Positions 71 through 27,177 are shown, counted from the first letter of the stretch. The stretch: DNA of 32,000 bases from Pyrodictium abyssi (GCF_036323395.1 NZ_AP028907.1:1200001-1232000), one strand, 5' to 3'. Program-made: numbers and translations. The notes: generated by a model not told the origin, from the letters alone.

Positions 71-571
71 GTGCTCGCCCCGCCGCCCGGCGTGCTGCTC
101 GCCAGGGTAGCCGAGCCCGGAGAGAGGGTGGACCTCGACGGGCTCTCCCGGCTCATGGCCCGGCGCGCAACGCTACTGGGAGGCGGCGCCCTCGTAGCCT
201 TCATGGGGTTCGTGAAGGGCCGGGTAGGCGGCGCGGAGGTCTCGAGGCTGGAGTACGAGGCGCTGGAGCCCCACGCCACCAGGAGGCTCCGGGAGCTCGC
301 CGAGAAGTACGCAGGGCTCCCCGGCGTGATAGACGTCGCCGCTATACACTACCAGGGGGGCCTCGGGCCCGGCGACCCCACGATATACATCCTAGTAACC
401 GCCGTGACCCGTAGCATCGCGTTCCACGCTGCCGCACTGCTGCTGGAGGAGGTCAAGCACAGTGTCCCGATATACAAGCTCGAGCGCCGTAGCGACGGCG
501 ACTACTGGATACTAGGCGACGGCACAAGGATACCCCGAGGAACAGAACGACAAACACACCCACAACTATAA
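71..571 (+). CDS. moaE: Molybdopterin synthase catalytic subunit (MoaE family)
   Basis: 166-aa ORF from GTG 71. The frame stays open to the window edge, so the true start is uncertain (GTG 92 is also possible). The layout GALVAFMGFVKG / LEYEA / AAIHYQGGLGPGDPTIYILVTAVTRSIAFHAA / VPIYKLE follows the E. coli MoaE pattern GAVVTFTGKVR / EHY / IHRIGEL.PGD...HR..AF.A / P.WK.E. Confidence 0.75.
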   Translation: MLAPPPGVLLARVAEPGERVDLDGLSRLMARRATLLGGGALVAFMGFVKGRVGGAEVSRLEYEALEPHATRRLRELAEKYAGLPGVIDVAAIHYQGGLGPGDPTIYILVTAVTRSIAFHAAALLLEEVKHSVPIYKLERRSDGDYWILGDGTRIPRGTERQTHPQL

Positions 572-838
572 ATCCTCTAGCACACGCCCGGAACTAAACT
601 TGAAGTTCCAGCTCTAGTACTCAGCTTCCTCCGGCCAGGTTTCAACCACCTAGATACACGTCATCCTCAAGTCCATGAGCCAACTACAAAGCTCCTACCG
701 ACTCATTACGACGTTATTCTGATATAATTTATAAATTAATAATTAATCTCTAGCCTCACCGTTTTGCAGCTCTAAAGACGAGCAGTAACTCTTACATCTT
801 ACATTAATAACGAATATAAGCAAAGCCTATAATGTAAT

Positions 839-851
839 AAAAATAAACAAA
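839..851 (-). terminator. T-rich tract downstream of the ATPase gene, an archaeal-type terminator candidate
   Basis: The minus strand reads TTTGTTTATTTTT about 25 nt after the TAG stop at 874-876. Archaeal termination commonly uses oligo-T tracts. The surrounding DNA is AT-rich, so specificity is weak. Confidence 0.3.
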
Positions 852-873
852 GGTATAGACATTAGTAATCATC

Positions 874-1950
874 CTAGACGAGCAATTTAAGTATATCTAC
901 GACTCGTCCTATTTCGCCTAAGAGATGTTCTAACAAACTCTCTTCTCCATTTTCATTTTTACGGTGAAGATATCTAATAACGGCTGCACGAGTACATGGT
1001 GCATTATTCTTGCCACTATTTGATTTAAATAGAGCAATATTTCTGAAAACATCACAGGTTACTTCTGATATAATCTTAGTATCATCCTGCATATTGATAT
1101 TCACTTTTTCTATACTCTTCATGCTGTCTTCAGGTATATATTTATCAGCGATACATTCGATTTTTCCTTCAATTCTTTTCCAGATATCCAGCTGGTAAAA
1201 GTTCAGAATAGGGTATATCTCCACATCTCCTATTTGTTTTCTAATTTTCTCTACTTCTTTAAAATCTTTGTGTATCTTATCTAAAATCTTTACATGTGAA
1301 AACGAATTTGTATGTGGGATGTCGGTTTGGCCTAAGCCGTGCCCGCCCCCCGTATTCCCCGTATTTCTACATTCTTTAGGTAAATCAGGTAAATCATATA
1401 GTAATGCGAGAGCCCTTGTATCTATTAAGTATATAATTCGTACTCTCATGCCTCGAGATACTACCTTCTCTTCCTTTCGGAGGAGTTCAACCAGCATCTT
1501 CAAGAGATCAGAGAAGTCTTTCGGGTTGAACGTTAGTATTGGTGATAAATCGATAATGACGTTTAGTGTGCTTTCCCCCTCTAAGTGTTGCAAGTGTTGC
1601 CTAATAATGTCCAAGATGCTAGCCACAATAAGTGCCGTATTTGATACAATGACTGCAAGCATCATATCTTTTTCCTTGGTTCCAGCTACATCGTAGATAT
1701 GCACCTTATCATTATCTCTAAGCATGTAGCGGTTAAATTTAATTACTTTGCCTACTTCATTATCTTCCGACCTCAACAGCAACGTTAGAGGAAAGGGTGT
1801 TGCAGGATCCAATGATATACATATGCTCTCGCCTTTATTATGCTGTCCAAAGGTGCTGCATAGTGCAGACGCTATAAGCGACTTCCCAGTACCACCCTTA
1901 TGCGAAGTAACAATATACAAGTTTATAACCGGATTATATCTGCCTGCCAT
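874..1950 (-). CDS. ParA/MinD-class (SIMIBI) P-loop ATPase with a roughly 170-aa C-terminal extension
   Basis: 358-aa ORF in AT-rich DNA. It has a deviant Walker A, YIVTSHKGGTGKSLIASAL (KGGxGK[ST]), and a Walker-B-like LNVIIDLSP. GGAGG (minus strand, 1960-1964) lies 9 nt upstream of ATG 1950 and overlaps the upstream gene's stop, so this is an internal operon gene. The C-terminal half (about residue 190 onward) has no motif I recognise. Confidence 0.8.
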   Translation of the reverse strand: MAGRYNPVINLYIVTSHKGGTGKSLIASALCSTFGQHNKGESICISLDPATPFPLTLLLRSEDNEVGKVIKFNRYMLRDNDKVHIYDVAGTKEKDMMLAVIVSNTALIVASILDIIRQHLQHLEGESTLNVIIDLSPILTFNPKDFSDLLKMLVELLRKEEKVVSRGMRVRIIYLIDTRALALLYDLPDLPKECRNTGNTGGGHGLGQTDIPHTNSFSHVKILDKIHKDFKEVEKIRKQIGDVEIYPILNFYQLDIWKRIEGKIECIADKYIPEDSMKSIEKVNINMQDDTKIISEVTCDVFRNIALFKSNSGKNNAPCTRAAVIRYLHRKNENGEESLLEHLLGEIGRVVDILKLLV

Positions 1951-1963
1951 CCCATATTACCTC

Positions 1964-3301
1964 CTAGCTTAGTTCATCACATAGGTAGAGAAGCGTTGCA
2001 AAAGGATACCTCTCTGCCATCGTTTCTAAATTCTTGTTTCCATTCTTGCCCCTATTTTTACTACTTAACGCATCTTTTAGGTCATATTTGAAGTATTTAA
2101 AATCATCACATAAATCACCCTTACACCATTTATGCCTTAGTATTACTGTTGCAACGAATTTTCGTAGCACATAGAGCCTATTGCCTTTAGGTACTCTTCT
2201 AAGAATAATGTATGCTGATAAAACTGGATGGATAAGACCGACTATACCCTTTCCTGCTAGCCTATCAATACCCTTCTCTGCAGTATTCTTCAAGGTTTCC
2301 AGGACTAGTTTTAGTATGTCTTCGCTTCGTAATCTCTTTTCATCAGTATGTGAATAAAATGCGTATTTGAACTTTAGCATACTTACTATCTTTCGAGGAT
2401 CACCTTCGAACGCATAGCCAAGATCATGCAGCAGCCCTGCCGATAAGATAACAAACCATTTAAAGTACTCAAATAAAGTACTGTTTAAAAACATTCCAAG
2501 CTCACGTCCAAATTCCCTATATTCTTCCGTGTCTTTAAAATTATCATAACTACTAATCTTATTATGGATAGACCGGGCTACTTCGTTTATACTGGTCTTC
2601 CATTTTTTGAAGTTTCTCGGTATTATTTCGTCTATTGTCACATCATTTACTATTTTTATCATGCATTTCGTTACATTTAGGCTGTGGAGTATATGATCGC
2701 GGTAAGCATAATGCAGAGGATCATGACTAAACATGTTATCGATCGATAGGAAGCGTATAATGTCGTCAAATATGTCGCTATAGTACAGTTTGTTCATAAG
2801 GTGCATATATACTGTTGTAGCTGCAGCTAGTATCTCCTCGACACGCTCTAGGCAGCTAGATAGTGGGGGTCTACCGCTAGATTCAAGTCTTGATTTTGCT
2901 AGCTTTACCATCATGCCCCTATATGCTTCTGAAGTAATTGTATTTTTGACATAAAGGTCTTCTATGCTCGTGACTAAAGGGGCATATTCATCTTTTAATA
3001 GTAGATATGCAAATAGGTAAGAAGCATTCTGAATGCCTTCAAGTATTTGATTAACCGTATTAACTATATCTGTAGCTTTCTTTACATCCTTATCGTTGGG
3101 CACAGTGGTATCACCTTTACTATTAACGTTGTAGCTGTGAGTAGAGACGTAACACCCAATAATGTCTACCATGGATAAGTCAGTGGGAATGATTGCTAGC
3201 ATTACCGTTACCGATAAACGCGACGCCTGCGTAAAGTATACTGGGCTCGAGGAAATATGTATTACGAACATAAGCAGCACAAGGAGAAGTATACTGTGCA
3301 T
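1964..3301 (-). CDS. HD-superfamily phosphohydrolase/nuclease-like protein with a hydrophobic N-terminus
   Basis: 445-aa ORF. The N-terminus MHSILLLVLLMFVIHISSS looks like a signal peptide or TM anchor. The C-terminal half carries an HD-type series: DHILHSLNV, AGLLHDLGYAF, GLIHPVLSAY, ILRHKW, ATLLYLCDELS. The start is ambiguous, with in-frame ATGs also at 3271, 3202 and 3172. Confidence 0.75.
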   Translation of the reverse strand: MHSILLLVLLMFVIHISSSPVYFTQASRLSVTVMLAIIPTDLSMVDIIGCYVSTHSYNVNSKGDTTVPNDKDVKKATDIVNTVNQILEGIQNASYLFAYLLLKDEYAPLVTSIEDLYVKNTITSEAYRGMMVKLAKSRLESSGRPPLSSCLERVEEILAAATTVYMHLMNKLYYSDIFDDIIRFLSIDNMFSHDPLHYAYRDHILHSLNVTKCMIKIVNDVTIDEIIPRNFKKWKTSINEVARSIHNKISSYDNFKDTEEYREFGRELGMFLNSTLFEYFKWFVILSAGLLHDLGYAFEGDPRKIVSMLKFKYAFYSHTDEKRLRSEDILKLVLETLKNTAEKGIDRLAGKGIVGLIHPVLSAYIILRRVPKGNRLYVLRKFVATVILRHKWCKGDLCDDFKYFKYDLKDALSSKNRGKNGNKNLETMAERYPFATLLYLCDELS

Positions 3302-4243
3302 CCCATATCACTTGCAGAGCATAGAGAGCATGACTTGTACCGTGACTATAGTAGAAATGTAAAAGATAAAAAGGGTTTGATTATATCTGATTATAATCAT
3401 GGTTCTATTAAGCTTAGTATGGTAGAGCTATTTAGCATGTGGCCTAACAAGGAAGAGCCTTTAGAGCGCTTTAGCAGTGAGTATAAGGATGAAAAGTTTG
3501 CTAAGTACGGCAGCCGCCTTGTAGTGTTCACTAGCATTGATAAGGGCGAAAAGGAAGGCTGGCTAAAGCCGGGACCCCAGCTTCCTCCTGCACTCAAATG
3601 CCTCCAAGTAGATTCATATGTGACTACAAATCTTCTGATTCAAATATATTCACATCCTTACTTGAGCACTCAGTATACTACACTAGGTGGATCGGCAAAC
3701 TCGTTGCGTCAAATGCTCTCTCAAGTGCATCTTTTGGAGAGTAGTACTGTACAAAATATGCTGCAGCAACTCTATTACAATATAGATTACATCGCAGATA
3801 GTGGATCACATTATTCATCACTGTCTGCTAAAGTTAGCAAAATAAACATAGAAAAAGATTTTAATAGTATAATTAGCGAAATAATTAGTATTATTAATGA
3901 GTTAGAGAAGCGTTTTAGAAGAGCCTATGAGCTAGATTTGATAAAGTATGATGACTGGCAAATAATTTCAGACAAACTACAGAAGCTTGGACTCCTAACC
4001 GAGATGTTGTATAAGATACGCGGCAAGCACATAGATATCTTAGACGCTCTCTCGATCATTAATAAAATAGAAACGAGTGTAGAGGAAATAGCAGAGGAAA
4101 CTAAAAAAAGAGTACCTCTAGTTGCATTACTGCTTGCTCCGGTATTCATACACTTTGAAAGAATAATAAACCCAGTGATGAAGGCTCTAGTTTCAAGATT
4201 ATATAATGCAAAGGTTACGGAAGACTCCCTCGCAAAAGAATAA
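3257..4243 (+). CDS. Hypothetical protein (island orphan 1)
   Basis: 328-aa maximal ORF. Its first 45 nt overlap the divergent HD gene head-to-head, so ATG 3419 (or TTG 3377) is the more likely start. The sequence looks mostly helical, with a hydrophobic segment VPLVALLLAPVFIHF near the C-terminus. I recognise no catalytic motif. Confidence 0.7.
   Translation: MYYEHKQHKEKYTVHPISLAEHREHDLYRDYSRNVKDKKGLIISDYNHGSIKLSMVELFSMWPNKEEPLERFSSEYKDEKFAKYGSRLVVFTSIDKGEKEGWLKPGPQLPPALKCLQVDSYVTTNLLIQIYSHPYLSTQYTTLGGSANSLRQMLSQVHLLESSTVQNMLQQLYYNIDYIADSGSHYSSLSAKVSKINIEKDFNSIISEIISIINELEKRFRRAYELDLIKYDDWQIISDKLQKLGLLTEMLYKIRGKHIDILDALSIINKIETSVEEIAEETKKRVPLVALLLAPVFIHFERIINPVMKALVSRLYNAKVTEDSLAKE
3391..3397 (+). 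promoter_or_regulatory. TATA-box candidate for the plus-strand island operon
   Basis: TTATAAT is centred about 25 nt upstream of ATG 3419. That spacing fits a leaderless archaeal transcript. A second TTATATC lies at 3381-3387. The AT-rich context lowers specificity. Confidence 0.35.
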
Positions 4244-4248
4244 ACAAG

Positions 4249-5163
4249 GTGACATGTAAAATGAGCACTGCTTGTGAATACATGACTAGAGTTCCTGATA
4301 AGAGTGAACCGTTTATCTTGGTAAAGTTGCTTTACTCGTTTCGTTATGAGCCTGACTTGAAGCATACAGAAGGAGTAAAGTTCGAGGAAGCTATGAGAGA
4401 CCTAAGAAGTGAAGTTGAGAACGTTATATCGAGCCTCCGCACTAACTATAGTGTGATAGAGGAAGAGGAAGCAACCAGACTAGTTATAGTTCATCCTGTA
4501 AACCATTTTGCTATAACTATTAGGTACGATGCTGTGATTGTCGAACGTCATGCAGCATTCCTTGAAGAAAAAGAGTGCAACGAAACAATAAACCTTATGA
4601 GATACATCCTAGAGCTACTTGCCGGAAAGCTAATTAATTATTATAAGCAATCGATAGTTGAGGTTGGTGTTCGTGTTTCTCAATCATATATCATTGTGAA
4701 GGGTGAGAATAGTGGCTCCCCAGCGGCTAGGGATGAGCTTCTAAGAGGTCTAGAGGAAGGGACTGTTGTTAGCGTTCTTGCCAATACATTAAATTTAATG
4801 CTAAGCAACAAGAGTCTACGAGATAATACACGCGACTTGGAAGTTAACTGGGGTATTCGAGTAGAAGGTTTAGGTAATGCGAGATTTGTAATAAAGTTTA
4901 TACGGCTAATGCAGGGGAACACTCTTTCTCTTCTTCCCTTGCTGTTGATACCTATGGGTCGCCCGGATCATGGTGTTGAGATTTCTACCCAGTTAATTAT
5001 CGTGCCGAGAGCACAGCGGGATGTCGGAGATGTTATTAGAACCCTGGATAGAGCCGAGGATTGGGTTATTAGTACGTCCCGCCAGTTACATGCTGGTATA
5101 GTAGAGCTGTTGCGGAAGCTAGTTGGTAAGGTGATAGTAATGTATGCTCCCTTGCCTGGTTAG
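4249..5163 (+). CDS. Hypothetical protein (island orphan 2)
   Basis: 304-aa ORF from GTG 4249. ATG 4261 is the likelier start because AAGGTGA (4246-4252) precedes it by 8 nt. The ORF begins only a few nt after the upstream stop at 4243, so the two genes form an operon. I recognise no motif. Confidence 0.7.
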   Translation: MTCKMSTACEYMTRVPDKSEPFILVKLLYSFRYEPDLKHTEGVKFEEAMRDLRSEVENVISSLRTNYSVIEEEEATRLVIVHPVNHFAITIRYDAVIVERHAAFLEEKECNETINLMRYILELLAGKLINYYKQSIVEVGVRVSQSYIIVKGENSGSPAARDELLRGLEEGTVVSVLANTLNLMLSNKSLRDNTRDLEVNWGIRVEGLGNARFVIKFIRLMQGNTLSLLPLLLIPMGRPDHGVEISTQLIIVPRAQRDVGDVIRTLDRAEDWVISTSRQLHAGIVELLRKLVGKVIVMYAPLPG

Positions 5164-5540
5164 TTTTACTTTACTGGTGAACTGGGTACTGGCGCTAACG
5201 TGACCCAAGTGAGGAGGCTTTCCGCTTTTCTTTGGTGTGTTTACTGACGTGGTTATTGTTTAAGTGCTTGCTGGGTTTGCTGATTGATTCTGGGGCATGG
5301 GGTAGAAGTGACGGAGGGGCCTTGTCTGAAGTACCTTGGATGCATTTCTGAGTGCTCTAGAGTGTTCATCTGGGGTGGGAGAATGGTGCTTACGAAGTGT
5401 TGATGCTGGCTATCCTGGAGCGGGTGTTGGTATGTCATGTGCGCGCCGGGTCTGAGATAGCTATTGCATGAGTTTGTGTGCTGGCTTGTTACGGGCCATG
5501 AGTCTTCTAGGGCTTATTAGCCGTAGCTGCCAGGCTATAG

Positions 5541-6041
5541 GTGGGTATGCAGGACTTGGCTAGTGCTGTGGTTGTTAGGCTTCCCCGCAGTGACGCTGAG
5601 AGGCTGGAGCGCGAGGCTAGCAGGCTCGGCATAGGCCTGGAGGAGTACGTGCTAGAGCTCCTCCTCCGGAACCTGGACCCGCTGGAGAGGGCGAGGGAAT
5701 ACGCTGAGGCTGCAAGGGGCCTCCTAGAGCGGGCGAGAGAGGAGCTAGAGAGGGGTGATGTCCGGCAGGCTGCCGGGGAGGCCTGGGGCGCTGCAGCGCT
5801 GGCCGTGAAGGCCTACGCGGCGTGGCGGGATGGCAAGAGGTTGACAAGCCATGAGGGGCTATGGGAGTACAAGAGGGTGATGAAGAAGGATCTCGGTGAA
5901 CGGGTTAGTGATGCGTGGTACGCTGGGCAGAGTATGCATGTCTGCTTCTACGAGGGCTGGTGCGCTCGAGAGGGCGTTGAGGAGGCCCTAGAGAGGATCA
6001 AGAGGCTAGTAGAGGAGGTTGAGAAGCGGGTAGAGGCGTAA
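5541..6041 (+). CDS. Ribbon-helix-helix / PaREP1-family fusion protein
   Basis: The N-terminus VVVRLPRSDAERLEREASRLGIGLEEYVLELLL has a strand-helix-helix (CopG-like) pattern. The rest matches the PaREP1 pattern: GDVRQAAGEAWGAAALAVKAYAAW...LTSHEGLWEY...SMHVCFYEG. ATG 5547 is an alternative start. Confidence 0.7.
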   Translation: MGMQDLASAVVVRLPRSDAERLEREASRLGIGLEEYVLELLLRNLDPLERAREYAEAARGLLERAREELERGDVRQAAGEAWGAAALAVKAYAAWRDGKRLTSHEGLWEYKRVMKKDLGERVSDAWYAGQSMHVCFYEGWCAREGVEEALERIKRLVEEVEKRVEA

Positions 6042-6225
6042 CCGGAGCCTACGGCGCCGCTACTGAGGCCTGAGCGCCGGGCTGCATCTCGGCGTGCTCC
6101 GGCGGTTAGGCGCTGACGCTGCTGTGCGCCGGGCGGCTGTGAGGACGTGTGCCCACCCCCGCGTCTTCTCGCTGGCTATCCTGTCACCTGTGGTAGGCCC
6201 CCGGGGCTGTGTCCTGGCGGCTGTT

Positions 6226-6245
6226 GTGTGGAGCCGGCTCCACAC
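6226..6245. promoter_or_regulatory. Perfect 20-nt palindrome, a candidate operator upstream of the ArsR-family gene
   Basis: GTGTGGAGCC|GGCTCCACAC is a perfect inverted repeat. A related copy, GTGTGTGGCTCCACAT, lies at about 6255-6270. Both sit 50-130 nt upstream of the plausible ArsR starts. Confidence 0.4.
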
Positions 6246-6321
6246 TTGGGGCGGTGTGTGGCTCCACATAGCCGCTATAAGGCTTGTCGGCGCCTATACC
6301 CGGGGTGCGGGATGGGGCTCC

Positions 6322-7737
6322 TTGAAGGGGTCTAGCGGCTTTAACTGTGAGAGCGACGTGGACACTGTGCTCCAGGCTCTAGGGCACCCGCTGAGGCGCC
6401 GCATAGTGGAGGCTCTGGCCGAGGAGGGTGAGATGAGCTACGCTGACCTCATGAGGAGGGTTGGGGTCGAAGACTCGGGGACCTTCGCGTTCCACCTCCG
6501 GAGGCTCAGGGGCCTCGTCGAGAAGGACGAGGAGCGCGGCGTCTACCGGCTCACCGAGCTAGGGCTACGGGCCTACCAGGCGCTCCGCCTGGTCAAAACG
6601 GGGGCCTCCGGGGATGTGGGGGCCCGCGAGACAGGGGCCCCGGACCAGCACGAAGAGGGCAGCAGGCTGCTATCGCGGGAGGAGGCTGAGCGGCTCCGGG
6701 ATGAGGGCACCTTCTGGGTTATCAGCGACCGTACCAGCTTCCGGCTCACGAGGGAGCACCTGGAGAGAGCGCTTAGGCGCGGCAGGAGGATACTACTCAC
6801 CGACATAGCTACGCTCGTCATAGACCCGGTCCCCGAAGAGCTGTTCGAGGAGGCCGTCCACGCTATCACGGATGTTGCGCGCGTCTACGCCCCGGAGCAC
6901 CTGCGGGCTGTTCTGGACGAGAAGCTGCAAGATGTGCTCAGTGTAAAGTACTATGACCCGTCGGAGGGCGTGCCGCAGCCGGGGCTACTCGGGGCGCTCG
7001 TTGAGACCCTCGGCTCCATCATCTCGAAGATCGTCGAGGCAGCATTCATGGCCAAGGGTACGGGCAGGCAGCTGGTGGAGGTGGATAGGGTCTTCAGCCG
7101 GCACGGCGAGGAGCTGAGGCTCCGCGCAGAGGCCTGCTCTCTCGTCGTGCTCCCCGGGGAAGACGGCGACACGATACGCCTCCATGGCCGCTCCCGCGGA
7201 GAGCCCTCTGTGGAGGCTACGGAGGCCGAGGACGGGCTAGCCGTCTCTATACGTGGCTCGCGCGAGACTAGGCTACAGCTAGACCTGCCGCCCGGGTGGC
7301 CCCGCCGCCTAGCACTAGAGGCCCGGGCGGCCAGCGTCAAGGCCACGGACCTGGAGCTTGAGAAGCTGAGCGTCAAAGCCAGCGCGTCGGCCCTGATGAT
7401 AGCGGCTAGGCTCGTGGGCCGGAACCCCTCCGCGGAGATAGCGTGCGACACGAGCGCCCTCCAAGCGGAGCTTGGGGGAGACTGGCAGGGCGAAGCCCTA
7501 GTCTCGCTAAAGCTAGGCGCTTCCTCCGCCGAGATAGAGCTGGCTGTCCCGCAGAGCGTACGCGTGGCCGTCGAAACCCTGCTGACAGCGTCATCAGCCA
7601 GCATAGTGGTCGACGGGAAGCGGGTACACGGAGGCTTCATGGAGCCCGGCTACGAGGAGGCCGGGCAGAGGCTCCGGCTGCTAGTGGAGGGCGCCGTGGG
7701 CTCAGCCAAGGTAAACGTCAAGAGGCTGCGAGGGTAG
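6322..7737 (+). CDS. ArsR-family winged-HTH protein with a long beta-rich C-terminal domain (DUF4097-like)
   Basis: The wHTH region reads LQALGHPLRRRIVEALAEEGEMSYADLMRRVGVEDSGTFAFHLRRLRGLVEKDEERGVYRLTELG. About 330 further residues follow with repetitive short-strand sequence (LRLRAEACSLVVL, LAVSIRG, LQLDLP, LSVKASA, EIELAVP). The maximal ORF starts at 6094, but its first roughly 76-88 codons are Arg/Cys/Trp-rich and contain the palindrome. TTG 6322 or GTG 6358 are the likelier starts. Confidence 0.7.
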   Translation: MKGSSGFNCESDVDTVLQALGHPLRRRIVEALAEEGEMSYADLMRRVGVEDSGTFAFHLRRLRGLVEKDEERGVYRLTELGLRAYQALRLVKTGASGDVGARETGAPDQHEEGSRLLSREEAERLRDEGTFWVISDRTSFRLTREHLERALRRGRRILLTDIATLVIDPVPEELFEEAVHAITDVARVYAPEHLRAVLDEKLQDVLSVKYYDPSEGVPQPGLLGALVETLGSIISKIVEAAFMAKGTGRQLVEVDRVFSRHGEELRLRAEACSLVVLPGEDGDTIRLHGRSRGEPSVEATEAEDGLAVSIRGSRETRLQLDLPPGWPRRLALEARAASVKATDLELEKLSVKASASALMIAARLVGRNPSAEIACDTSALQAELGGDWQGEALVSLKLGASSAEIELAVPQSVRVAVETLLTASSASIVVDGKRVHGGFMEPGYEEAGQRLRLLVEGAVGSAKVNVKRLRG

Positions 7738-8746: not shown

Positions 8747-9202
8747 TCATCGCTGTTGCGGCTGTGCAGCTGTAGCAGCTTCCTTATCCTCGAATAAGGC
8801 CTTCTCCGTCTCCCCCAGTAGATAGTATGCTTCAACGCCGTATCTCCGGGCGCTCAGAACCTGCACCCTATCGTTCGAGACCAGGATGGAGCTTGTCTTC
8901 GAGGCACATGCTATGTAGTAGGCGTCGGCCGCTCTGGACCCAGTGGCTATGGCCACACGGTAGGCATCCTCGTCAAGGTTGGTGCACACACGGATCCTAG
9001 ATACAATCTCCTCCACCAGTTGTTCAACAACATCCCTAGGGTTAAGGCGTACCAAGAGCCCGGCAAGCTCCACCCGGAAGAGTGCAGGCTCGTATATAGC
9101 TAGGCCCTCGACCTCTGCGAAGAACTTCTCAGCTAGTCTAAGACGGGCCTCATCCCTCGCGTTGAACAAGTCGAACCACAACGAAGCATCAACAACTATC
9201 AT
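8747..9202 (-). CDS. vapC: PIN-domain ribonuclease toxin (VapC)
   Basis: It begins MIVVDASLWFDLF (first acidic PIN residue) and later has SNDRV. A small antitoxin-like ORF ends 6 nt upstream. Confidence 0.8.
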   Translation of the reverse strand: MIVVDASLWFDLFNARDEARLRLAEKFFAEVEGLAIYEPALFRVELAGLLVRLNPRDVVEQLVEEIVSRIRVCTNLDEDAYRVAIATGSRAADAYYIACASKTSSILVSNDRVQVLSARRYGVEAYYLLGETEKALFEDKEAATAAQPQQR

Positions 9203-9208
9203 GCCGCT

Positions 9209-9394
9209 TCAACGCCTCTCGGCGAGGTACCCGTCTATATCCTCGGAGGAGAGCTTGACGCCGTGCTTTTCGCGGTAACGGCGTGCTACATCAACTATGC
9301 TCTCCTCGATCCTTACTAGTACGTGCTGCCCTTCGTATAGGTCAAGCCTCTCTAGAGGCCTTAGTACCCCCTTCTCGTAGACTGCTCTTACTAC
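9209..9394 (-). CDS. DUF104 (AF2212-like) antitoxin-family protein, with no canonical start codon
   Basis: My manual translation of the minus strand gives (TR)VVRAVYEKGVLRPLERLDLYEGQHVLVRIEESIVDVARRYREKHGVKLSSEDIDGYLAERR*. The AVYEKGVLRPLE..L.L.EG..V.V signature is typical of DUF104 antitoxins paired with PIN toxins. The frame is closed by TGA at 9401-9403. There is no in-frame ATG, GTG or TTG, which explains its absence from the ORF track. Confidence 0.55.
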   Translation of the reverse strand, partial: VVRAVYEKGVLRPLERLDLYEGQHVLVRIEESIVDVARRYREKHGVKLSSEDIDGYLAERR

Positions 9395-9572
9395 TCTAGT
9401 TCACACCTTGTACCCATGTACCGTAGCACCGGCACTCCGGATAAGCACAGTGGCTATTCCAACACCCTCCGGGTGCATCACTCTCCACGCGTTAAGCCAG
9501 GTGAAAAGCTAGGCTTAGACCCCGTTAGCCGACTGGGGGCTTGTCGCTACACTGTGGCTGTCGCCGCGTGTT

Positions 9573-10049: not shown

Positions 10050-10970
10050 ATGCTTCCTTCGGAGCGCGTGTCTGGGCCAGTGTTGCCCACCCGCGTGGGG
10101 CTAGTTAAACTGTTCGCCCCCGAGGGGCCCGCCGCGCGTGGTAGGCTGCGCCGGGGCGCTAAGAGGGGCCGCGGGGCCTGCCCCCAGGCGGGGGTGCAGC
10201 GGGGCCTGGTTGAGCGCGGCCGGTTGAGGGCTCTAGCGCTGCTAGCGGGCGTCTTCGCCGCGCCGGGGCTGCTGGAGCCGCCGCTCGCCGGCGTGGAGCT
10301 TACCCGGGTGCGGCTGGGGCTAGGCCGCCGGGTGCTACTCCTAGCAGACATGCACATCCACGGCAAGCCCAACGCCATGGCGGTGGAGGCTGCTAGAGCC
10401 TCCAAGCCCGACGTGATAGTCGTCGCCGGGGATACGTGGGACGAGCGCAGCCCAGGCCTAGCCGCCGTCGAGGAGACGCTCAGAGAGGCTGCGAGGCATG
10501 CGCGCGCCGGGGTCGCGGTGCTCGGCAACCACGAGGAGTGGGCCCGGGACAGGATAAGCCTCGAGGATGGGATACGGGTGCTCGAGGACGCGGGCTACAC
10601 CGTGCTCGTGGACAGCGACGCCGAGGTGCAGGGGCTACGGGTCGCCGGGCTCCGGTGGAGAGACAACCCGAGGCGCTACGAGGAGCCCCTCAGCCGGCTA
10701 GCCCCGGGGACCGACATAGTCGTCTCCCACAGCCCTGACGCGTTCAACCACCTCCCCAGGGCCGCGGGGAGGCTCGTCATGCTCTCGGGCCACACGCACG
10801 GCGGGCAGTGGTGCCTGCCGGGCGGCTACGCTCCCTTTACCAACAGCGTCTACGGCTACCGGTGGGGCCTCTACCGCCGCGGCGAGGCAGCGCTGTACGT
10901 CAGCCGGGGCCTAGGCGAGATGATCCCGCCCAGGCTGTACTGCCGCTACCAGGCCGTAGTCATAGAGTAA
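10050..10970 (+). CDS. Metallophosphoesterase (YkuE/YaeI-like)
   Basis: Motifs LLLADMHIHG, VVAGDTWD, VLGNHE and SGHTHGGQ are present. The first roughly 48 codons are Arg/Gly-rich, so GTG 10194, just before the hydrophobic segment LRALALLAGVFAAPGLL, is a plausible true start. Confidence 0.8.
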   Translation: MLPSERVSGPVLPTRVGLVKLFAPEGPAARGRLRRGAKRGRGACPQAGVQRGLVERGRLRALALLAGVFAAPGLLEPPLAGVELTRVRLGLGRRVLLLADMHIHGKPNAMAVEAARASKPDVIVVAGDTWDERSPGLAAVEETLREAARHARAGVAVLGNHEEWARDRISLEDGIRVLEDAGYTVLVDSDAEVQGLRVAGLRWRDNPRRYEEPLSRLAPGTDIVVSHSPDAFNHLPRAAGRLVMLSGHTHGGQWCLPGGYAPFTNSVYGYRWGLYRRGEAALYVSRGLGEMIPPRLYCRYQAVVIE

Positions 10971-11016
10971 CACCGCGTGATGGCCGGCCACCATGTGTCC
11001 TCGGCCCGGGGCCTAG

Positions 11017-11970
11017 ATGCACGTGTTACCAGCCCCTCCAGGGGCCCGGGGATCCTGGGGGATGGCGGTTAGGGGCCAGGGCTTCACAGTGGAGGCCCAG
11101 CTGGGCCTAGCCCGGGTGCTCTCCCCCGGCGGCACCGTGGAGCCGGCAGTGGTCTACAGGGGCAGGGTCTACCCCCTAGGGGCCTGGGGCTACAGCGACG
11201 TGAGAGAGGTCATGCTCGAGAACCCGCCGGAGGAGTTCGAGAGCCTCGCGCGCAGCGTCGCCTCGAGCGACCGTGGGCTCCCGCTCCACGGGGTCCGGCT
11301 AGCAGCGCCAGTGGACCGGCCAGGCAAGCTAGTGCTGGTCGGCCTCAACTACATGGACCACGCCCGCGAGATACGCCGGGAGCCGCCCCGGGTGCCCGAC
11401 CTCTTCACCAAGACCAGTAACACGGTCATAGGGCCCGGGGACCCCATCGTGCTCCACGACCCCGGGCTCCGGGTGGACGCCGAGGCCGAGCTAGCAGCGG
11501 TCATAGGGCTCCCAGGCCGCAGCCTAGAGCCCGAGGAGGCCCTAGAGGTGGTCTGGGGCTACACCTGCCTCAACGACGTCTCAGCCCGGACCGAGCAGCT
11601 CCTATCCGGGGCCACCCAGTGGTGGAGGGGCAAGAGCAGAGACACCTACGCGCCCATAGGCCCCGTGATAGTGCCGCGCGTGCTCCTAGACCCCGGGCAG
11701 GGGCTCCGCCTAAGACTGCTAGTCTCCGGCGAAACCCTCCAAGACGGCACCACACGGGACATGATACACAACGTCGCGGTGCTAGTCTCCTACACGAGCA
11801 GGGGCACACTCCTAGAACCCGGCGACATAATAGCCACCGGGACCCCCGCCGGGGTAGGCCACGCACGCCAGCCGCCACGCTACCTAGAGCCCGGCGACAC
11901 CGTAGCCGTGTGCATCGAGGCGATAGGCTGCATAGAGAACCCCGTAGTACCCGACACCCAGCCCGCCTAG
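11017..11970 (+). CDS. Fumarylacetoacetate hydrolase (FAH) family protein
   Basis: Motifs LVGLNYMDHAREI, PDLFTKTSNTVIGPGDPIV, VDAEAELAAVIG, GYTCLNDVSAR, WWRGKSRDTYAPIGP and ATGTPAGVG are present. ATG 11062 is an alternative start. Confidence 0.85.
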   Translation: MHVLPAPPGARGSWGMAVRGQGFTVEAQLGLARVLSPGGTVEPAVVYRGRVYPLGAWGYSDVREVMLENPPEEFESLARSVASSDRGLPLHGVRLAAPVDRPGKLVLVGLNYMDHAREIRREPPRVPDLFTKTSNTVIGPGDPIVLHDPGLRVDAEAELAAVIGLPGRSLEPEEALEVVWGYTCLNDVSARTEQLLSGATQWWRGKSRDTYAPIGPVIVPRVLLDPGQGLRLRLLVSGETLQDGTTRDMIHNVAVLVSYTSRGTLLEPGDIIATGTPAGVGHARQPPRYLEPGDTVAVCIEAIGCIENPVVPDTQPA

Positions 11971-12328
11971 AGCACCGAGATACACGAGCAGAGTCGACGC
12001 CAAAAGAACGCCCCTTCAGCCCTCGAACTCTTCCTCCAGGTCTATCTCCGCTAGCTCGCCGAGCCTAGCTCTTCCGGCCCTCAACTGGGCACGCCTCTCA
12101 CGAAGCTACCGGAGCACATTCTTCAGCTGCGCATCATAGGCCATAAGCTCCTCCCCCTGGGCCCGAGTAGAGCGTAGCCCCTCTATGACCATAAGCCTCG
12201 CAGAGAGCCCCCCGGGTACCACTATCTATCCCTTAGGTCCAGTCCTTCTGTCCTCGGTCTAACCAGGGGCCACACTGTGCAAGAGGCTAGCAGTATTCAA
12301 GGCTAAAATAGACATCCAGTAGCAGGGG

Positions 12329-12445
12329 CTAGTTGCTAGCCGTAGCAGGACAGTCCGAGCCCCCAGCCGCCCCAGGCGCTAACAGAAGGGCAATAACCGC
12401 GCCCAGCCATAGCCCGGCGCCAAGGAGTACAGCGTGTCTACCCAT
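12329..12445 (-). CDS. Possible 38-aa single-TM peptide
   Basis: My manual translation gives MGRHAVLLGAGLWLGAVIALLLAPGAAGGSDCPATASN*. Its ATG lies a few nt after the stop of the co-oriented membrane-protein gene. It is short, so support is weak. Confidence 0.25.
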   Translation of the reverse strand: MGRHAVLLGAGLWLGAVIALLLAPGAAGGSDCPATASN

Positions 12446-12452
12446 TTAGGCG

Positions 12453-12800
12453 CTATAGCTTCTCGTAGGCGTATCTACGCGCCTCCCCGACCAGCTCGTA
12501 CATTGATGCGAGAGCAAGCAATAACATTGCCGCCCCGGCTAGACCCGGGCCGTAGAGGAGGAAGCCTAGCAGCCCCAGCACCGCGACGAAGAGATAATGG
12601 GCCACTGCTAGCAGCTCTGGGACGCGGTCCCTGGGCAGCGAAGCCAGGAGCAGAATCGCGTAGTTTATCGCCGAGCCTATATTCCGGGCTATGAGGGAAT
12701 AGAGTAGCCCGGCTAGACCCGTCACTAGGCCTAGAGCAGCTAGAATACCTATCCACTGCCGACTATCCCTGGAAGTGCCCGTAGTACCCCCCGGGCTCAA
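12453..12800 (-). CDS. Hypothetical integral membrane protein
   Basis: 115 aa from a TTG start, with three or four clear hydrophobic helices (WIGILAALGLVTGLAGLLYSLI, AINYAILLLASL, LFVAVLGLLGFLLYGPGLAGAAMLLLALA). Confidence 0.55.
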   Translation of the reverse strand: MSPGGTTGTSRDSRQWIGILAALGLVTGLAGLLYSLIARNIGSAINYAILLLASLPRDRVPELLAVAHYLFVAVLGLLGFLLYGPGLAGAAMLLLALASMYELVGEARRYAYEKL

Positions 12801-13024
12801 CTAATGCAGCACCATATGAGACACATCGAATACAGGTCTGCATATCTTAAGTGATGTGCCCCAGGAACCGTAGACACCTTCGGATATCCTGCCGAGCGGG
12901 CTAGCCGTGGCCCGCTACCTGTGGCTAGCTAGCGCCCAGCGCTGCACCGCCGATATACTATCACGTTATCCTCGTATTATCGTGTCCGCTTCCTTTTAGA
13001 AGTAGCGCCATTAAACTCCAGACA

Positions 13025-13102
13025 ATGAGGTATACCTATCAAGTAGATGACGCTACGCCGGAGATAGAGCTAAGCAGCCATGCCAAGAGAAGGATTGAGT
13101 AG
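13025..13102 (+). pseudogene. 5' fragment of a DUF4258-like toxin gene, cut off by an in-frame TAG
   Basis: ATG 13025 encodes MRYTYQVDDATPEIELSSHAKRRIE, followed by TAG at 13100-13102. The same frame continues RGIAIEAVIDT into the ORF at 13136. LS.HA..R..(x)RGI is the N-terminal DUF4258 signature. Confidence 0.5.
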
Positions 13103-13135
13103 CGAGGCATAGCCATCGAGGCAGTAATAGACACC

Positions 13136-13597
13136 ATGCTTAGCCCTAGCTATGAACTATACGATGTAAAAGAGAGCACGCTCATATATACTTCGGAGAA
13201 GCACCGGCTGGTTGTCGCGGCTGTACGCCGTCCCGGAGACAAACTATACGTTGTCACCGTTATACCTGTGAGCAATCTTGAAAGCCTTGTGTCTAGGAGG
13301 ATTAGGAGGGCCGGTGGATACCGTTCGATAGAGGAGCTAGTAGAGGGCAGGATAATTGAGTACGACCCCGGATCCGATATCCTGGTTATACGTATACGCC
13401 GGGGCAAGGCTGTCGACGGCGAGTGGCTGGATAACGACGTGGTGCTACTGTATGGAGAGGATGGTAGGCTCCTCGAGGTGGAGGTCCACCGCGCCCGTGG
13501 TCGTGGCCTCGTGGAGGCCGTGCTGGAGCTGAGCGAGCGGCTAGGGCTCCGGCCAATGCGGCGGGCGGCTGAGGCTAGCCATGTAGAGGCTACGTGA
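13136..13597 (+). CDS. DUF4258-like (C-terminal part) fused to a DUF2283-like domain
   Basis: 153-aa ORF. The N-terminal part (LIYTSEKHRLVVAAVRRPGDKLYVVTVIPVS) continues the DUF4258 fold begun upstream of the TAG. The second part, IIEYDPGSDILVIRIRRGKAVDGEWLDNDVVLLYGEDGRLLEVEV, fits the DUF2283 pattern (YD.e.D.L.I....g......vd.d..G.lvgiEi). Confidence 0.65.
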   Translation: MLSPSYELYDVKESTLIYTSEKHRLVVAAVRRPGDKLYVVTVIPVSNLESLVSRRIRRAGGYRSIEELVEGRIIEYDPGSDILVIRIRRGKAVDGEWLDNDVVLLYGEDGRLLEVEVHRARGRGLVEAVLELSERLGLRPMRRAAEASHVEAT

Positions 13598-17348: not shown

Positions 17349-17906
17349 ATGACCCCGGGCGCGGGGAAACCAGGGTATGATGTCAGGCTGCTAGTGGAGA
17401 ACGCTATACTGATAGACCGGGACATAATACTGGACCTCTACACCGGCTTCGAGAAGGTCCTCCGGTTCGTGGGCGGCCTCCTCTACACGGCGTCGAAGAG
17501 GGCGGGCAAGCTCACCGCCGAGAGGATGGAGAAGAGGGGAGTGCTCAGTAGGGAGAACGCGCTGGACCTGCTCTTCTGGAGCTTCACAGCCGCGGGCTAC
17601 GCGGAGAGGGTCGAGATAGCGGACGTGAGGCTGGGCAGGAAGGATACCGAGATAGAGATACGGGTCACGGGCGCGCTGCTCGGGTCGAGGCTGAAGGGGA
17701 GGAAGAGGCCCGTAGACCAGCCGCTAGCCGGCTACGTGGCTGGCTGGCTCGAGCACGTCTACGGCCTCCGGGTGGACGCGCGTGAGACTAGCTGCGCCGC
17801 CAAGGGCGACGGGAGCTGCGTCTTCACCGTCAGGATACACGGCCGGGTCGATGAGCTCGCCGGTGCCGTGGGCAAGGTATACCAGCGGGAGGCGCAGCAG
17901 TCATAG
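17349..17906 (+). CDS. V4R-domain protein (4-vinyl-reductase-like small-molecule-binding domain)
   Basis: 185 aa, with GGAGGG about 10 nt before ATG 17349. The C-terminal SCAAKGDGSCVFTV matches the V4R C...G...C.F signature. Confidence 0.6.
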   Translation: MTPGAGKPGYDVRLLVENAILIDRDIILDLYTGFEKVLRFVGGLLYTASKRAGKLTAERMEKRGVLSRENALDLLFWSFTAAGYAERVEIADVRLGRKDTEIEIRVTGALLGSRLKGRKRPVDQPLAGYVAGWLEHVYGLRVDARETSCAAKGDGSCVFTVRIHGRVDELAGAVGKVYQREAQQS

Positions 17907-18662
17907 GCTCATGGCCAGCCCGTCTACGGGGACGACGACTCCCTGGGGGAGCTTCCCCGCCCGGGCCCGTTCCCTCAGCTCCTTGAGGCTCTCGCGGGTA
18001 AGGTGTATCGTCACCAGCGTGGAGCCGCTCCTTATGACTCCCCGGTAGGCTAGCACTTGCTCCACAGTGTGGTGCCCAGACTCCTGCGCGACCTCGGCCA
18101 GGCTGCTCGGAATGGTGGTCTCCACCGCCGCCACGGCCGCGCGCTTCACGGCATCCTCCACGGTCTCTGTTGGCGCCGTATCGCCGCTGTAGTAGAGCAC
18201 TGGCTCCCCGTCCCAGTAGACCAGGGCGCCGTAGCTCGTGACCGCGTGGCGGCCCTCCACAGGCTCTACCTCGAGCCTGGCACCGGGGCTCCAGCGCCTC
18301 CGCGGCTCTATCCCGATTAGGCTGCTGCACTGCTCCCGGTAGACACGGGGGAGCCTGGGGAGGAGCGCCTCCAGGGCCTCGCCCGCCACCGGCGACGCGG
18401 CCACGATGCGTGGTGGCCTGCACTGCTCGGCTGCAGAGTAGACTGCTATGTCGAATAGCCCGGCCCAGTGGTCGATGTGCAGGTGTGTTATGTAGACGTA
18501 GTCTATCTCGCAGACGCTGTAGCCTGCCTCCTGGAGCCTCTGGCCGCAGCCTGGCCCGGCGTCGAGCACTATGCGTGCGTCCCCGGTGTCTACTAGTATG
18601 CAGTTCTCGGCCCGTCCCGGCGGCGCGCCCGAGCCGCCCGTGCCCAGGAAGACGACGTACAT
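17901..18662 (-). CDS. MBL-fold metallo-hydrolase
   Basis: MYVVFLGTGGSG...ENCILVD followed by YITHLHIDHWAGL (the HxHxDH motif). Confidence 0.8.
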   Translation of the reverse strand: MYVVFLGTGGSGAPPGRAENCILVDTGDARIVLDAGPGCGQRLQEAGYSVCEIDYVYITHLHIDHWAGLFDIAVYSAAEQCRPPRIVAASPVAGEALEALLPRLPRVYREQCSSLIGIEPRRRWSPGARLEVEPVEGRHAVTSYGALVYWDGEPVLYYSGDTAPTETVEDAVKRAAVAAVETTIPSSLAEVAQESGHHTVEQVLAYRGVIRSGSTLVTIHLTRESLKELRERARAGKLPQGVVVPVDGLAMSL

Positions 18663-25986: not shown

Positions 25987-27177
25987 TCATCCCCGCACCG
26001 CGGGGGCCTTCGGGGCTCCACGGAAACCCCTGGAGCCCCTCATCCGCGTGAAGCCTTTCAATGCAAGATTCCAAGCCGCCACGATGTCTCTAGTTGTAGC
26101 AACACCGTTTGGCAGTACCATCCATCGGTAGTTCAGCTTCTTCACCTTGCCCTGTGGCGAGGCTTTGCTGGTGCTTTTCGCGGGGACGTAGATTGTCTTC
26201 AATCCTCTCCATGCCGCCTTGTACTCTATGAAGCCCTGTAGCCTTCTGTAGGCGAGCTGGGTGAAGAGCCATGCCAGCCTACTGTTCTCTTCCGAGGCAC
26301 ACATCTTCAAGCCTTTGAGGTTCTCCAGGACTATGAGCGAGCCATACCTGTCCGCAATCCCCACCAGCTTCTTAGCCGCAAAATGAGCGGTATCATTGAC
26401 TATGCTCCTGGCTCTGCTCATCCGCCTCTTGTAGACCTTCCGAGACCACTTCATGAACCTCCAGTGTCTTCCGAGGCGCTTCTGGAGGCTCTCCGCCATT
26501 TTGCGGAGGCGTAGTGCTCTCTTGAAGCCCTTGAAGACTGTGACGCCAGCGGTTACGATTCTACCAGACTCGGCGTCGAGGACAACGTAGCTCACGTTGC
26601 CCAGGTTCACGTCCACGCCCATAACGGTTCTAGGCTTCCTCTCTTCGACCTCCCTCTCAAGAGTCATATAGACCTTGAAGCCGTCGTTGCGGTGTGATAC
26701 TAGTAGCTCCTTTGGCCTCCAGCCCTCGGCGAGGAACCGCTTTAGCCTGCGCATACCTCTCAATCGCAGCTCTACCCATCCGCCGTGGAGAACTGCTACT
26801 TTGAGCACCCCTCTCTCGACGTCAAGCCTGTACTCGTAGCTGTGGAGCCTCGCGGTTAGCCTCCTTAGTATGGGCTTTCTGCCACCGTTCTTCTTGACTG
26901 CCTTCACTATCTCCTTTGCACGCTTGTATATCTCGCTGACGTGGTGGGCGCGGAAACCCCAGCCCCGCAGCTCCCTGTAGAACATCTCGTGTAGCTGCCT
27001 GACGCTGGGAACCCTATCTAGACCCCATATAGTGTCCACGATGTACTGGACCGCGTCGCGGTACGCCTTGAGGAAGTCGAGTAGGGGCTGGGGATTAGGG
27101 GGGCCACCGCATCCATTACGACGGTGGCTCTGACCCTCATCCCGCCAGCCCCCAGCCATGCGAGCGGAGAGTAACAC
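25987..27177 (-). CDS. tnpB: TnpB-like (IS605 OrfB family) RuvC-fold protein, probably degraded
   Basis: RuvC triad context is present: VMGVDVNLGN (D), LIVLENLKGL (E) and TTRDIVAAWNLA (D). The usual CxxC...CxxC zinc ribbon between E and the last D is absent (STSKASPQGKVKKLNYRWMVLPNGV). The first roughly 25 codons look out of frame relative to a better N-terminus starting at ATG 27140. Confidence 0.8.
   Translation of the reverse strand: MLLSARMAGGWRDEGQSHRRNGCGGPPNPQPLLDFLKAYRDAVQYIVDTIWGLDRVPSVRQLHEMFYRELRGWGFRAHHVSEIYKRAKEIVKAVKKNGGRKPILRRLTARLHSYEYRLDVERGVLKVAVLHGGWVELRLRGMRRLKRFLAEGWRPKELLVSHRNDGFKVYMTLEREVEERKPRTVMGVDVNLGNVSYVVLDAESGRIVTAGVTVFKGFKRALRLRKMAESLQKRLGRHWRFMKWSRKVYKRRMSRARSIVNDTAHFAAKKLVGIADRYGSLIVLENLKGLKMCASEENSRLAWLFTQLAYRRLQGFIEYKAAWRGLKTIYVPAKSTSKASPQGKVKKLNYRWMVLPNGVATTRDIVAAWNLALKGFTRMRGSRGFRGAPKAPAVRG

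Follow-up and report, generated by a model that had tools for sequence, protein, structure and literature searches.

A low-G+C four-gene cassette of foreign composition downstream of moaE in Pyrodictium abyssi

Results

Gene content and composition of the locus

We analyzed a block of low G+C content in the chromosome of Pyrodictium abyssi that lies between moaE and a PaREP1/HEPN-family gene. The block is part of a stretch of 32,000 nucleotides (nt; NZ_AP028907.1:1200001-1232000), hereafter the window, in which all positions are counted from the first nucleotide. Four long open reading frames (ORFs) fill it as two divergent, tightly packed pairs. On the minus strand, a gene for an HD-motif protein (1964-3103; 379 amino acids from the GTG start at 3103 in the NCBI annotation) is followed after 13 nt by a gene for a ParA/Soj-like P-loop ATPase of 358 amino acids (874-1950). 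On the plus strand, the gene for protein X (PABY_13210, 3257-4243, 328 amino acids) precedes by 5 nt that for protein Y (PABY_13220, 4249-5163, 304 amino acids, or 300 if translation starts at 4261). As argued below, this block is very probably horizontally acquired DNA and a discrete four-gene cassette.

The two operons diverge from an intergenic region at 3104-3256, in which TATA-like AT stretches lie ~22-27 nt upstream of each start and are putative promoters. All four ORFs are intact, with 300-445 codons. Since 300 open codons would arise by chance in DNA of 38% G+C with a probability of ~2e-9, the ORFs are real genes, and this is supported by the motifs of the ATPase, the HD-motif protein and Y, which are kept at 24-47% identity (see below). 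The intact ORFs mean either that the genes are retained under selection or that they are too young to have decayed.

The original prediction for this DNA had described a sharp drop in G+C after the moaE stop and a rise after 5163. The window was examined with sliding-window G+C, a maximum-likelihood fit of two breakpoints, G+C at third codon positions (GC3), codon usage and tetranucleotide signature, all calculated within its 32 kb. The sliding windows gave G+C values of 0.73/0.69 on the moaE side at 1-450, 0.47 at 451-750, 0.33-0.45 across 600-4950, 0.48-0.52 at 4950-5550 and 0.62-0.70 past 5550, and the fitted breakpoints fell at 540 and 5404, which bears out both the drop and the rise. The core of the block (720-5163) has a G+C of 0.384, compared with 0.634 +/- 0.025 (minimum 0.585) in other 4.4-kb windows, and thus lies ~10 standard deviations from the rest of the window. 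The four island genes have a GC3 of 0.36-0.38; for moaE, the PaREP1 gene, a gene for a 547-amino-acid helix-turn-helix (HTH) protein and an EamA transporter gene, the values are 0.72-0.80. The tetranucleotide distance of the island from the rest of the window is 0.30, and host chunks give 0.14-0.16. Codon choice differs in the same way between island and host (Arg AGA 41% vs 7%; Glu GAA 59% vs 9%; Lys AAA 47% vs 12%). The island is set apart by each of these measures, and the compositional discontinuity is confirmed as real and far beyond chance.

The left edge of the block is abrupt and the right edge is graded, with the Y gene climbing to 42-45% G+C. The left flank is moaE itself (71-571, plus strand; Pfam MoaE, 5.1e-20), a host gene with a G+C of 0.67 and a GC3 of 0.79. 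Its last ~30 nt are already C/A-rich and lie within the fitted breakpoint at 540, and the C-terminal tail of the MoaE protein past residue ~157 is not conserved with the homologue on contig L001, from a distant metagenome-assembled genome. A transition zone of ~50% G+C follows at 572-715; it has no assigned strand, is C/A-rich on the plus strand, contains a 6-bp hairpin (GGAACT at 590-595 with AGTTCC at 604-609) and looks like host intergenic DNA. Between it and the ATPase gene is an AT-rich non-coding tail (716-873, ~25-35% G+C), 3' of that gene. This tail matches nothing in Rfam and includes a short AT palindrome (730-752). The right transition zone (5164-5540), upstream of the PaREP1 gene, comprises 377 nt of non-coding DNA of ~50% G+C that is strongly G/T-rich on the plus strand (GC skew +0.38, AT skew -0.32); it is free of ORFs and Rfam matches, and its RNA folding is not significant (z-scores -1.66 and +0.96). 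The left zone (572-715) is a compositional mirror image of the right zone (5164-5540), and the two have no sequence in common. Both edge zones resemble host intergenic DNA. Beyond the right zone, the PaREP1/HEPN-family gene (5541-6041, plus strand; Pfam PaREP1, 4.8e-23; HEPN, 6.2e-4) is again host-like, with a GC3 of 0.725.

A second copy of the cassette

Relatives of the island proteins were sought in several large collections. Among 5.8 billion protein clusters the P. abyssi copies of the HD-motif protein and the ATPase stood alone. An exhaustive HMMER search over 1.84 billion representatives returned one further relative of the HD-motif protein (P0003, 435 amino acids, E = 8.3e-41), and a profile search with Y and its homologue Y' recovered the same two lineages and no others. 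Protein X was searched more narrowly than the other three. None of the four proteins had a relative in IMG/VR, and the HD-motif protein had none in the JGI metagenomes. BLAST searches against phages (island DNA and HD-motif protein) and plasmids (ATPase) gave no match, and for the island proteins no hit in PHROGs, NCBIfam or PADLOC stood out from noise.

P0003 is encoded on near-identical metagenome contigs of ~30% G+C from six samples (L003-L007 and L015), which represent an uncultured organism. There, four genes lie on one strand in the order X', Y', ATPase', HD' (the prime denotes the second lineage). HD' (435 amino acids) is 36% identical to the P. abyssi HD-motif protein over 358 amino acids (E = 4e-50), Y' (P0004, 328 amino acids) is 31% identical to Y (E = 2.8e-12), and ATPase' (337 amino acids, L003:1702-2715) matches the ATPase with an E of 1.5e-8. 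Homology of X to the 411-amino-acid X' of L006 and L015 was not demonstrable (best pairwise E 0.01); X and X' are positional counterparts, each gene lying directly upstream of that for Y or Y'. The adjacency of X with Y and of the ATPase with the HD-motif protein is kept in both lineages, and the relative orientation of the pairs and the internal order of the ATPase-HD pair differ. The two islands consist of one and the same set of four genes. The cassette itself is therefore the inherited unit, and a larger element that decayed at random would be unlikely to leave this set twice.

The second copy also departs in composition from its surroundings. On L006 the cassette (~900-5700) has a G+C of 0.20-0.44 and a GC3 of 0.20-0.33, and its left neighbours, genes for an AF2212-like antitoxin and a PIN toxin (vapBC), have a GC3 of 0.51-0.65. 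The cassette thus lies ~21-25 G+C points under its flanks in two hosts of unlike G+C. The contig breaks off 320 nt beyond the stop of HD', inside a tRNA gene. The 3' part that it retains (5964-6008, minus strand), followed by an encoded CCA, scores 31.1 bits in Rfam against a gathering threshold of 29, aligns as a standard tRNA and has the anticodon loop CUCCGGA, that of Arg-CCG. No second copy of this tRNA 3' end and no convincing attachment (att) repeat was found on L006. When the flanks of the two cassettes were compared, they shared chance-level matches of 9-11 nt only, with no common motif or terminal repeat.

Two repeats were noted in and near the X' gene: a 34-nt direct repeat, 91% identical, at L006 973-1006 (just upstream of the X' start) and 1782-1815 (within X'), and a 54-nt tandem duplication within X' at L006 1542-1649 that the independent assembly L015 has as well. 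These repeats may be binding sites or may have arisen by slippage.

These comparisons bear on whether the block belongs to the P. abyssi AV2 chromosome at all. An assembly chimera or contaminant would account for so extreme a jump in composition and for genes without relatives in the family, but the record is a single 2.22-Mb contig, both junctions lie in non-coding zones of intermediate composition with no gene cut, the codon usage is intermediate (GC3 is above that of the L006 copy), and a similar island and neighbourhood recur in independent assemblies from six samples. We regard a chimera as extremely improbable.

The original prediction had taken the block for a recent acquisition from a low-G+C donor. 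Its foreign origin is supported by the composition, by the co-inheritance of the four genes and by the finding of relatives solely in a context of ~30% G+C, where the cassette is low in G+C too; the word recent, however, does not follow from these data. A low-G+C donor fits the observations but is one option only, because the offset of ~21-25 points in two hosts also agrees with a cassette that circulates in an AT-rich mobile gene pool.

The four predicted proteins

The ATPase carries a deviant Walker A motif (SHKGGTGKS, with K18 and K23), an SLDP motif (D48) and a Walker B motif (IIDLSP, D134), all invariant in an alignment with the L006 homologue. It therefore has the KGGxGK[ST] pattern with signature lysine and the Walker B aspartate that define deviant Walker A ATPases, and it resembles ParA, Soj and MinD (SIMIBI class) in this pattern, in a DP-containing A' motif and in an hhhhD Walker B motif that are kept in both homologues. 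It differs from those proteins in that its similarity is confined to the motifs and its gene is operonic with that of an HD-motif protein. Its match to Pfam CbiA (6.8e-5, 23.3 bits) falls under the gathering cut-off of 25.4, as does that of the L006 homologue (24.7 bits), and a profile search of the PDB found MinD (3Q9L) over the Walker A region only. The cassette holds no recognisable ParB or centromere partner for the ATPase.

The ORF of the HD-motif protein is open up to 3301 (445 amino acids). A set of residues, H203, H206, H292-D293, H358, H390 and D442, is invariant between the two homologues at 36-47% identity and corresponds to the conserved H...HD...D metal ligands of the HD superfamily. 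The protein shares with HD phosphohydrolases and nucleases (Cas3 HD, dNTPases) the H...HD...H...H...D residues and an all-helical prediction, but it lacks a significant Pfam or PADLOC match, a helicase or another typical partner. Its match to PF01966 (E 0.016, 15.9 bits) is below the cut-off of 22, and that to PADLOC Cas3-HD (E 0.035) is sub-threshold. A PDB profile search found nothing, and the AlphaFold2 model was unusable, with a predicted local distance difference test score (pLDDT) of 33. Neither PF01966, the AlphaFold2 model nor the PDB profile search gave a confident HD fold or a match at curated threshold.

Protein X matched no family; its hits in Pfam, PHROGs, NCBIfam and PADLOC were all sub-threshold, among them one to the helical region of PADLOC Cas12c (6e-4). 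Its composition and these weak matches suggest that X is mostly helical.

Protein Y likewise matched no family in Pfam, PHROGs, NCBIfam or PADLOC, and a PDB sequence-profile search gave no match. It has the conserved motif H-x3-H-F-x3-IRYD-x6-H. Its AlphaFold2 model (pLDDT 60.6, predicted template modelling score 0.61; residues 20-150 at pLDDT 67-84) has a duplicated beta-alpha-beta4-alpha topology (x2) like that of the TATA-binding protein (TBP). The top PDB match of this model in Foldseek was the Rep_trans initiator RepSTK1 (4CIJ, E = 4.9e-6, probability 1.0), with template modelling (TM) scores of just 0.24-0.26. Further structural matches were AdoMetDC and TBP, and the best viral neighbour (in BFVD) was an unnamed protein (target-normalised TM-score, TMt, 0.56).

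A 2026 study shows that viruses and plasmids of archaea, among them hyperthermophilic ones and those of Thermococci, use TBP-fold Rep-Arvir (DUF7845) initiators whose kinship with Rep_trans is structural only (PMC13107129). A pseudo-dimeric TBP-like fold, as modelled for Y with RepSTK1 as best PDB neighbour, would be a likeness to these initiators. We weighed the reading that a small cryptic plasmid or rolling-circle element (~4.5 kb) became integrated and that the cassette is its backbone. In this reading Y would be a very divergent TBP-fold initiator of the Rep_trans or Rep-Arvir type and the ATPase a partition protein, and integration by host recombination or by nicking-joining through Y would leave no integrase, inverted ends or target duplication. 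The ParA/Soj-type motifs of the ATPase are in keeping with such a backbone, as are the AT-richness of the cassette relative to both hosts and the tRNA gene adjoining one copy. The size and four-gene content of the cassette fit small archaeal plasmids.

Several features of Y argue against this reading. The TM-scores to 4CIJ are low and come from a model of pLDDT 60.6, and neither PF02486 (Rep_trans) nor PF25227 (Rep-Arvir) matched Y or P0004 even at E <= 10. Every Rep-Arvir protein carries a winged helix-turn-helix (wHTH) domain after the TBP-like part (PMC13107129), but no such domain follows the TBP-like part of Y, which ends at residue 304 with no HTH match. The invariant tyrosines of Y (Y29, Y67 and Y93, the last within the conserved motif) all lie in the N-terminal third, and there is none in the C-terminal half, where Rep_trans and RepSNJ2 have theirs (motif III); the C-terminal Y299 is shifted by three residues in the homologue. 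This comparison, made by sequence position with Rep reference positions from PMC13107129, may point against a Rep-type initiator. The non-coding parts contain no hairpin origin: no inverted repeat of at least 8 nt was found at 5120-5560, and elsewhere there were AT palindromes only. The empty IMG/VR, phage (island DNA and HD-motif protein) and plasmid (ATPase) searches point the same way, and no free circular form is known. Membership of Y in Rep_trans or Rep-Arvir is not supported, and a plasmid or rolling-circle backbone is an unlikely source of the cassette.

A related reading makes the cassette an autonomous mobile element of a new type. Here Y would act as a Rep_trans-like nicking-joining enzyme that replicates and inserts the cassette by a rolling-circle route instead of an integrase, the ATPase and the HD-motif protein would serve its maintenance, and insertion would leave behind no integrase, inverted ends or target duplication. 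This would explain a bare AT-rich cassette in two unrelated archaeal chromosomes; we hold it to be highly improbable.

Mobility signatures and insertion site

The original prediction had also found no integrase, tRNA, insertion sequence (IS) end or flanking repeat at the block, and this holds for the full 32 kb. ARAGORN found no tRNA or tmRNA gene in the window, no Rfam family matched it, and no tRNA fragment of T-arm or acceptor type was found in it. No long ORF at 1-25 kb has an integrase or transposase domain, and the six-frame translation of the flanks, judged by eye and not scanned against Pfam, showed no integrase-like frame. In an alignment of the two flanks, 400-950 against 4900-5750, for att-like direct repeats, the longest exact direct match was 9 nt, which is at chance level (shuffles: mean 8.6, maximum 12). 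Terminal inverted or direct repeats of the island did not exceed chance. The P. abyssi copy thus has none of the marks of an IS or transposon (transposase, terminal inverted repeats, target-site duplication), and of those of an integrative element it has the host-deviating composition and lacks a recombinase, a tRNA or tmRNA site and attL/attR. The nearest transposon-type ORF, a TnpB-like one, lies ~20 kb from the island. This 396-amino-acid ORF (25987-27177, minus strand) has a Cas12f1-like TNB domain of the TnpB/OMEGA type (E = 8e-10), lies in a patch of 0.55-0.57 G+C and is probably a remnant of the IS200/IS605 family, unrelated to the island.

tRNA genes are the classical target of integrative elements. 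Given its foreign composition in both hosts and, on L006, a distance of ~320 nt to the 3' end of tRNA-Arg(CCG), the cassette could be the leftover cargo of a tRNA-targeting integrative element, such as an SSV- or pT26-2-like provirus or plasmid, that lost its integrase and att sites in P. abyssi after secondary rearrangement away from the tRNA. The cassette is like SSV- and pT26-2-type elements in being foreign, AT-richer DNA within a chromosome, one copy of which adjoins a tRNA 3' end. However, the P. abyssi copy lacks an att repeat and any integrase, be it whole or split, and the window contains neither a tRNA nor a fragment of one. On L006 the tRNA end is not duplicated. Random decay would be unlikely to reduce two independent copies to an identical set of four genes and to strip both of every other element gene. 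The visual six-frame inspection of the flanks, which was not a Pfam scan, also speaks against it. We consider a leftover cargo quite unlikely.

The insertion site was compared among distant MoaE relatives, of 37-55% identity. A genome scan with MoaE gave a distant metagenome-assembled genome (L001) and a bacterium, with no Pyrodictium relative among the matches listed. On contigs L001, L008 and L011, moaE is followed within ~250 nt by a metallophosphatase gene. The sole homologue of that gene in the window (tblastn 25-28% identity, E = 1e-7 to 1e-9; Pfam Metallophos) lies at 10050-10970 on the plus strand, and the gap between moaE and metallophosphatase in P. abyssi is 9.5 kb. The metallophosphatase gene thus marks the far end of a variable stretch. 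Besides the cassette and the PaREP1/HEPN gene, this stretch carries genes for a DUF7347 HTH protein and an EamA transporter as well as a vapBC pair. On L010, a 3-kb block after moaE (10500-13500) has a G+C of 0.34-0.41 and contains ORFans and a HEPN-nucleotidyltransferase (HEPN-MNT) toxin-antitoxin pair, and on L012 moaE is followed by an ORFan of 39% G+C (5097-5660). Because relatives carry either the metallophosphatase gene or other low-G+C DNA at this place, the site downstream of moaE is recurrently variable: the end of the moaDE operon is a spot at which AT-rich DNA and toxin-antitoxin genes repeatedly gather, and no other layer of the variable stretch is as foreign in composition as the cassette. 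The original prediction had left the arrival of the block unexplained. The lack of a recombinase, tRNA or att site in the window upholds that assessment, but the recurrent variability of the site and the position of the second copy ~320 nt from a tRNA-Arg 3' end give it a context.

A further reading is that the block is an old Pyrodictium resident, with no transfer, and that selection keeps its G+C low, for example in the interest of DNA melting, silencing or the control of expression. The four intact genes and the graded right edge would suit it, and an intrinsic constraint could make the cassette AT-rich relative to two very different hosts. It would, however, need strong selection at synonymous sites over 4.4 kb to keep GC3 at 36-38% against 72-80%, the sole homologues have their genes in another order and in surroundings unrelated to these, and distant relatives have other content after moaE. 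An old resident is in our view improbable.

The vapBC-type pair of the variable stretch lies on the minus strand, with a PIN gene at 8747-9202 (Pfam PIN, 7.1e-9) and an AF2212-like antitoxin gene at ~9272-9400, and has a G+C of 55%. The VapB of L006, encoded directly beside the cassette there, is 49% identical to that at 9272-9400 (E = 3e-9), and toxin-antitoxin genes are thus near the cassette in both hosts.

Other features of the window were recorded in passing. The 547-amino-acid ORF (6094-7737, plus strand) has a DUF7347/ArsR-type HTH at residues 91-163, and its first ~90 residues look over-extended from an upstream GTG. A protein of metallo-beta-lactamase fold (17901-18662, minus strand) has a weak, sub-threshold likeness to Apyc1, an anti-Pycsar nuclease (E = 1.3e-4, 22 bits vs 50). 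A C/A-rich stretch at 23-24 kb is simply minus-strand coding sequence for a membrane protein.

Discussion

The explanation that best accounts for the locus as a whole, and which we put forward with moderate confidence, is that the block is an acquired, self-contained cassette of ~4.5 kb, captured without a recombinase and kept as a conflict module. The cassette consists of two two-gene operons, one for the HD-motif protein and the ParA-like ATPase and the other for the helical protein X and the TBP-fold protein Y, and sits at the end of the moaDE operon, at the edge of the 9.5-kb variable stretch. It may derive from an AT-rich mobile gene pool of an environment common to its hosts. Capture without a recombinase of its own could have occurred when the host recombined imported DNA into a permissive operon end; alternatively, the cassette could be the surviving, selected core of an integrative element. 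These are the two most likely routes of arrival.

Retention would be as a conflict module, for defence or addiction. The ATPase, as an ATP-dependent DNA-binding protein, and the TBP-fold protein might recognise DNA, and the HD-motif protein, whose full H..HD..H..H..D set resembles HD metal-ligand motifs, might be the hydrolytic effector. This functional part, which we infer, is the weakest step of the explanation. A conflict module fits the pairing of an ATPase with an HD hydrolase, the inheritance of a bare cassette and the toxin-antitoxin neighbourhood, and we rank it slightly ahead of a plasmid or rolling-circle backbone.

A number of observations weigh against the acquired conflict cassette. 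The gene order is unlike between the two copies, hence they are no recent copies of one element. The site comparison covers distant relatives and provides neither an empty site nor evidence of age. The Pfam matches of the ATPase and the HD-motif protein are under their gathering thresholds, and the structure model of the latter (pLDDT 33) is unusable. In PADLOC-DB 2.0, no defence model was matched by any of the four proteins above threshold; since no defence model matches, the conflict role draws solely on domain types and neighbourhood. A ParA-type ATPase and a TBP-fold Rep-like protein are typical plasmid functions and favour a plasmid backbone. Hyperthermophilic archaea carry vapBC and HEPN genes in great numbers, so that their proximity to the cassette may be chance.

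Low-G+C islands of 'dark matter' occur commonly in archaea, where the lack of a recognisable integrase at an insertion is not unusual; an island of this kind with foreign genes is an ordinary kind of genomic island. The cassette is like the archaeal 'dark matter islands' (Makarova et al. 2014, PMC4158269) in its narrowly distributed, fast-evolving and uncharacterised genes of deviant composition and in its toxin-antitoxin or defence-type neighbours in a variable chromosomal spot. It differs from them in that no marker of the mobilome, be it an integrase, a transposase or a virus gene, accompanies the P. abyssi copy, and in its cargo of four compactly arranged genes that recur as an intact set in a second lineage. 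What is new is this cargo, a co-inherited gene set unlike any described system and found, in the searches with the ATPase, the HD-motif protein and Y, in two lineages only.

If the cassette is a defence system, it would add one that is specific to hyperthermophiles, with an unusual pairing of an ATPase and a nuclease. To our knowledge, no plasmid or virus has been described for the Pyrodictiaceae. If Y is a true Rep_trans-like enzyme, the TBP-fold initiators of archaeal mobile elements would extend to this family. In this clade, the end of the moaDE operon would be a place where foreign DNA lands recurrently.

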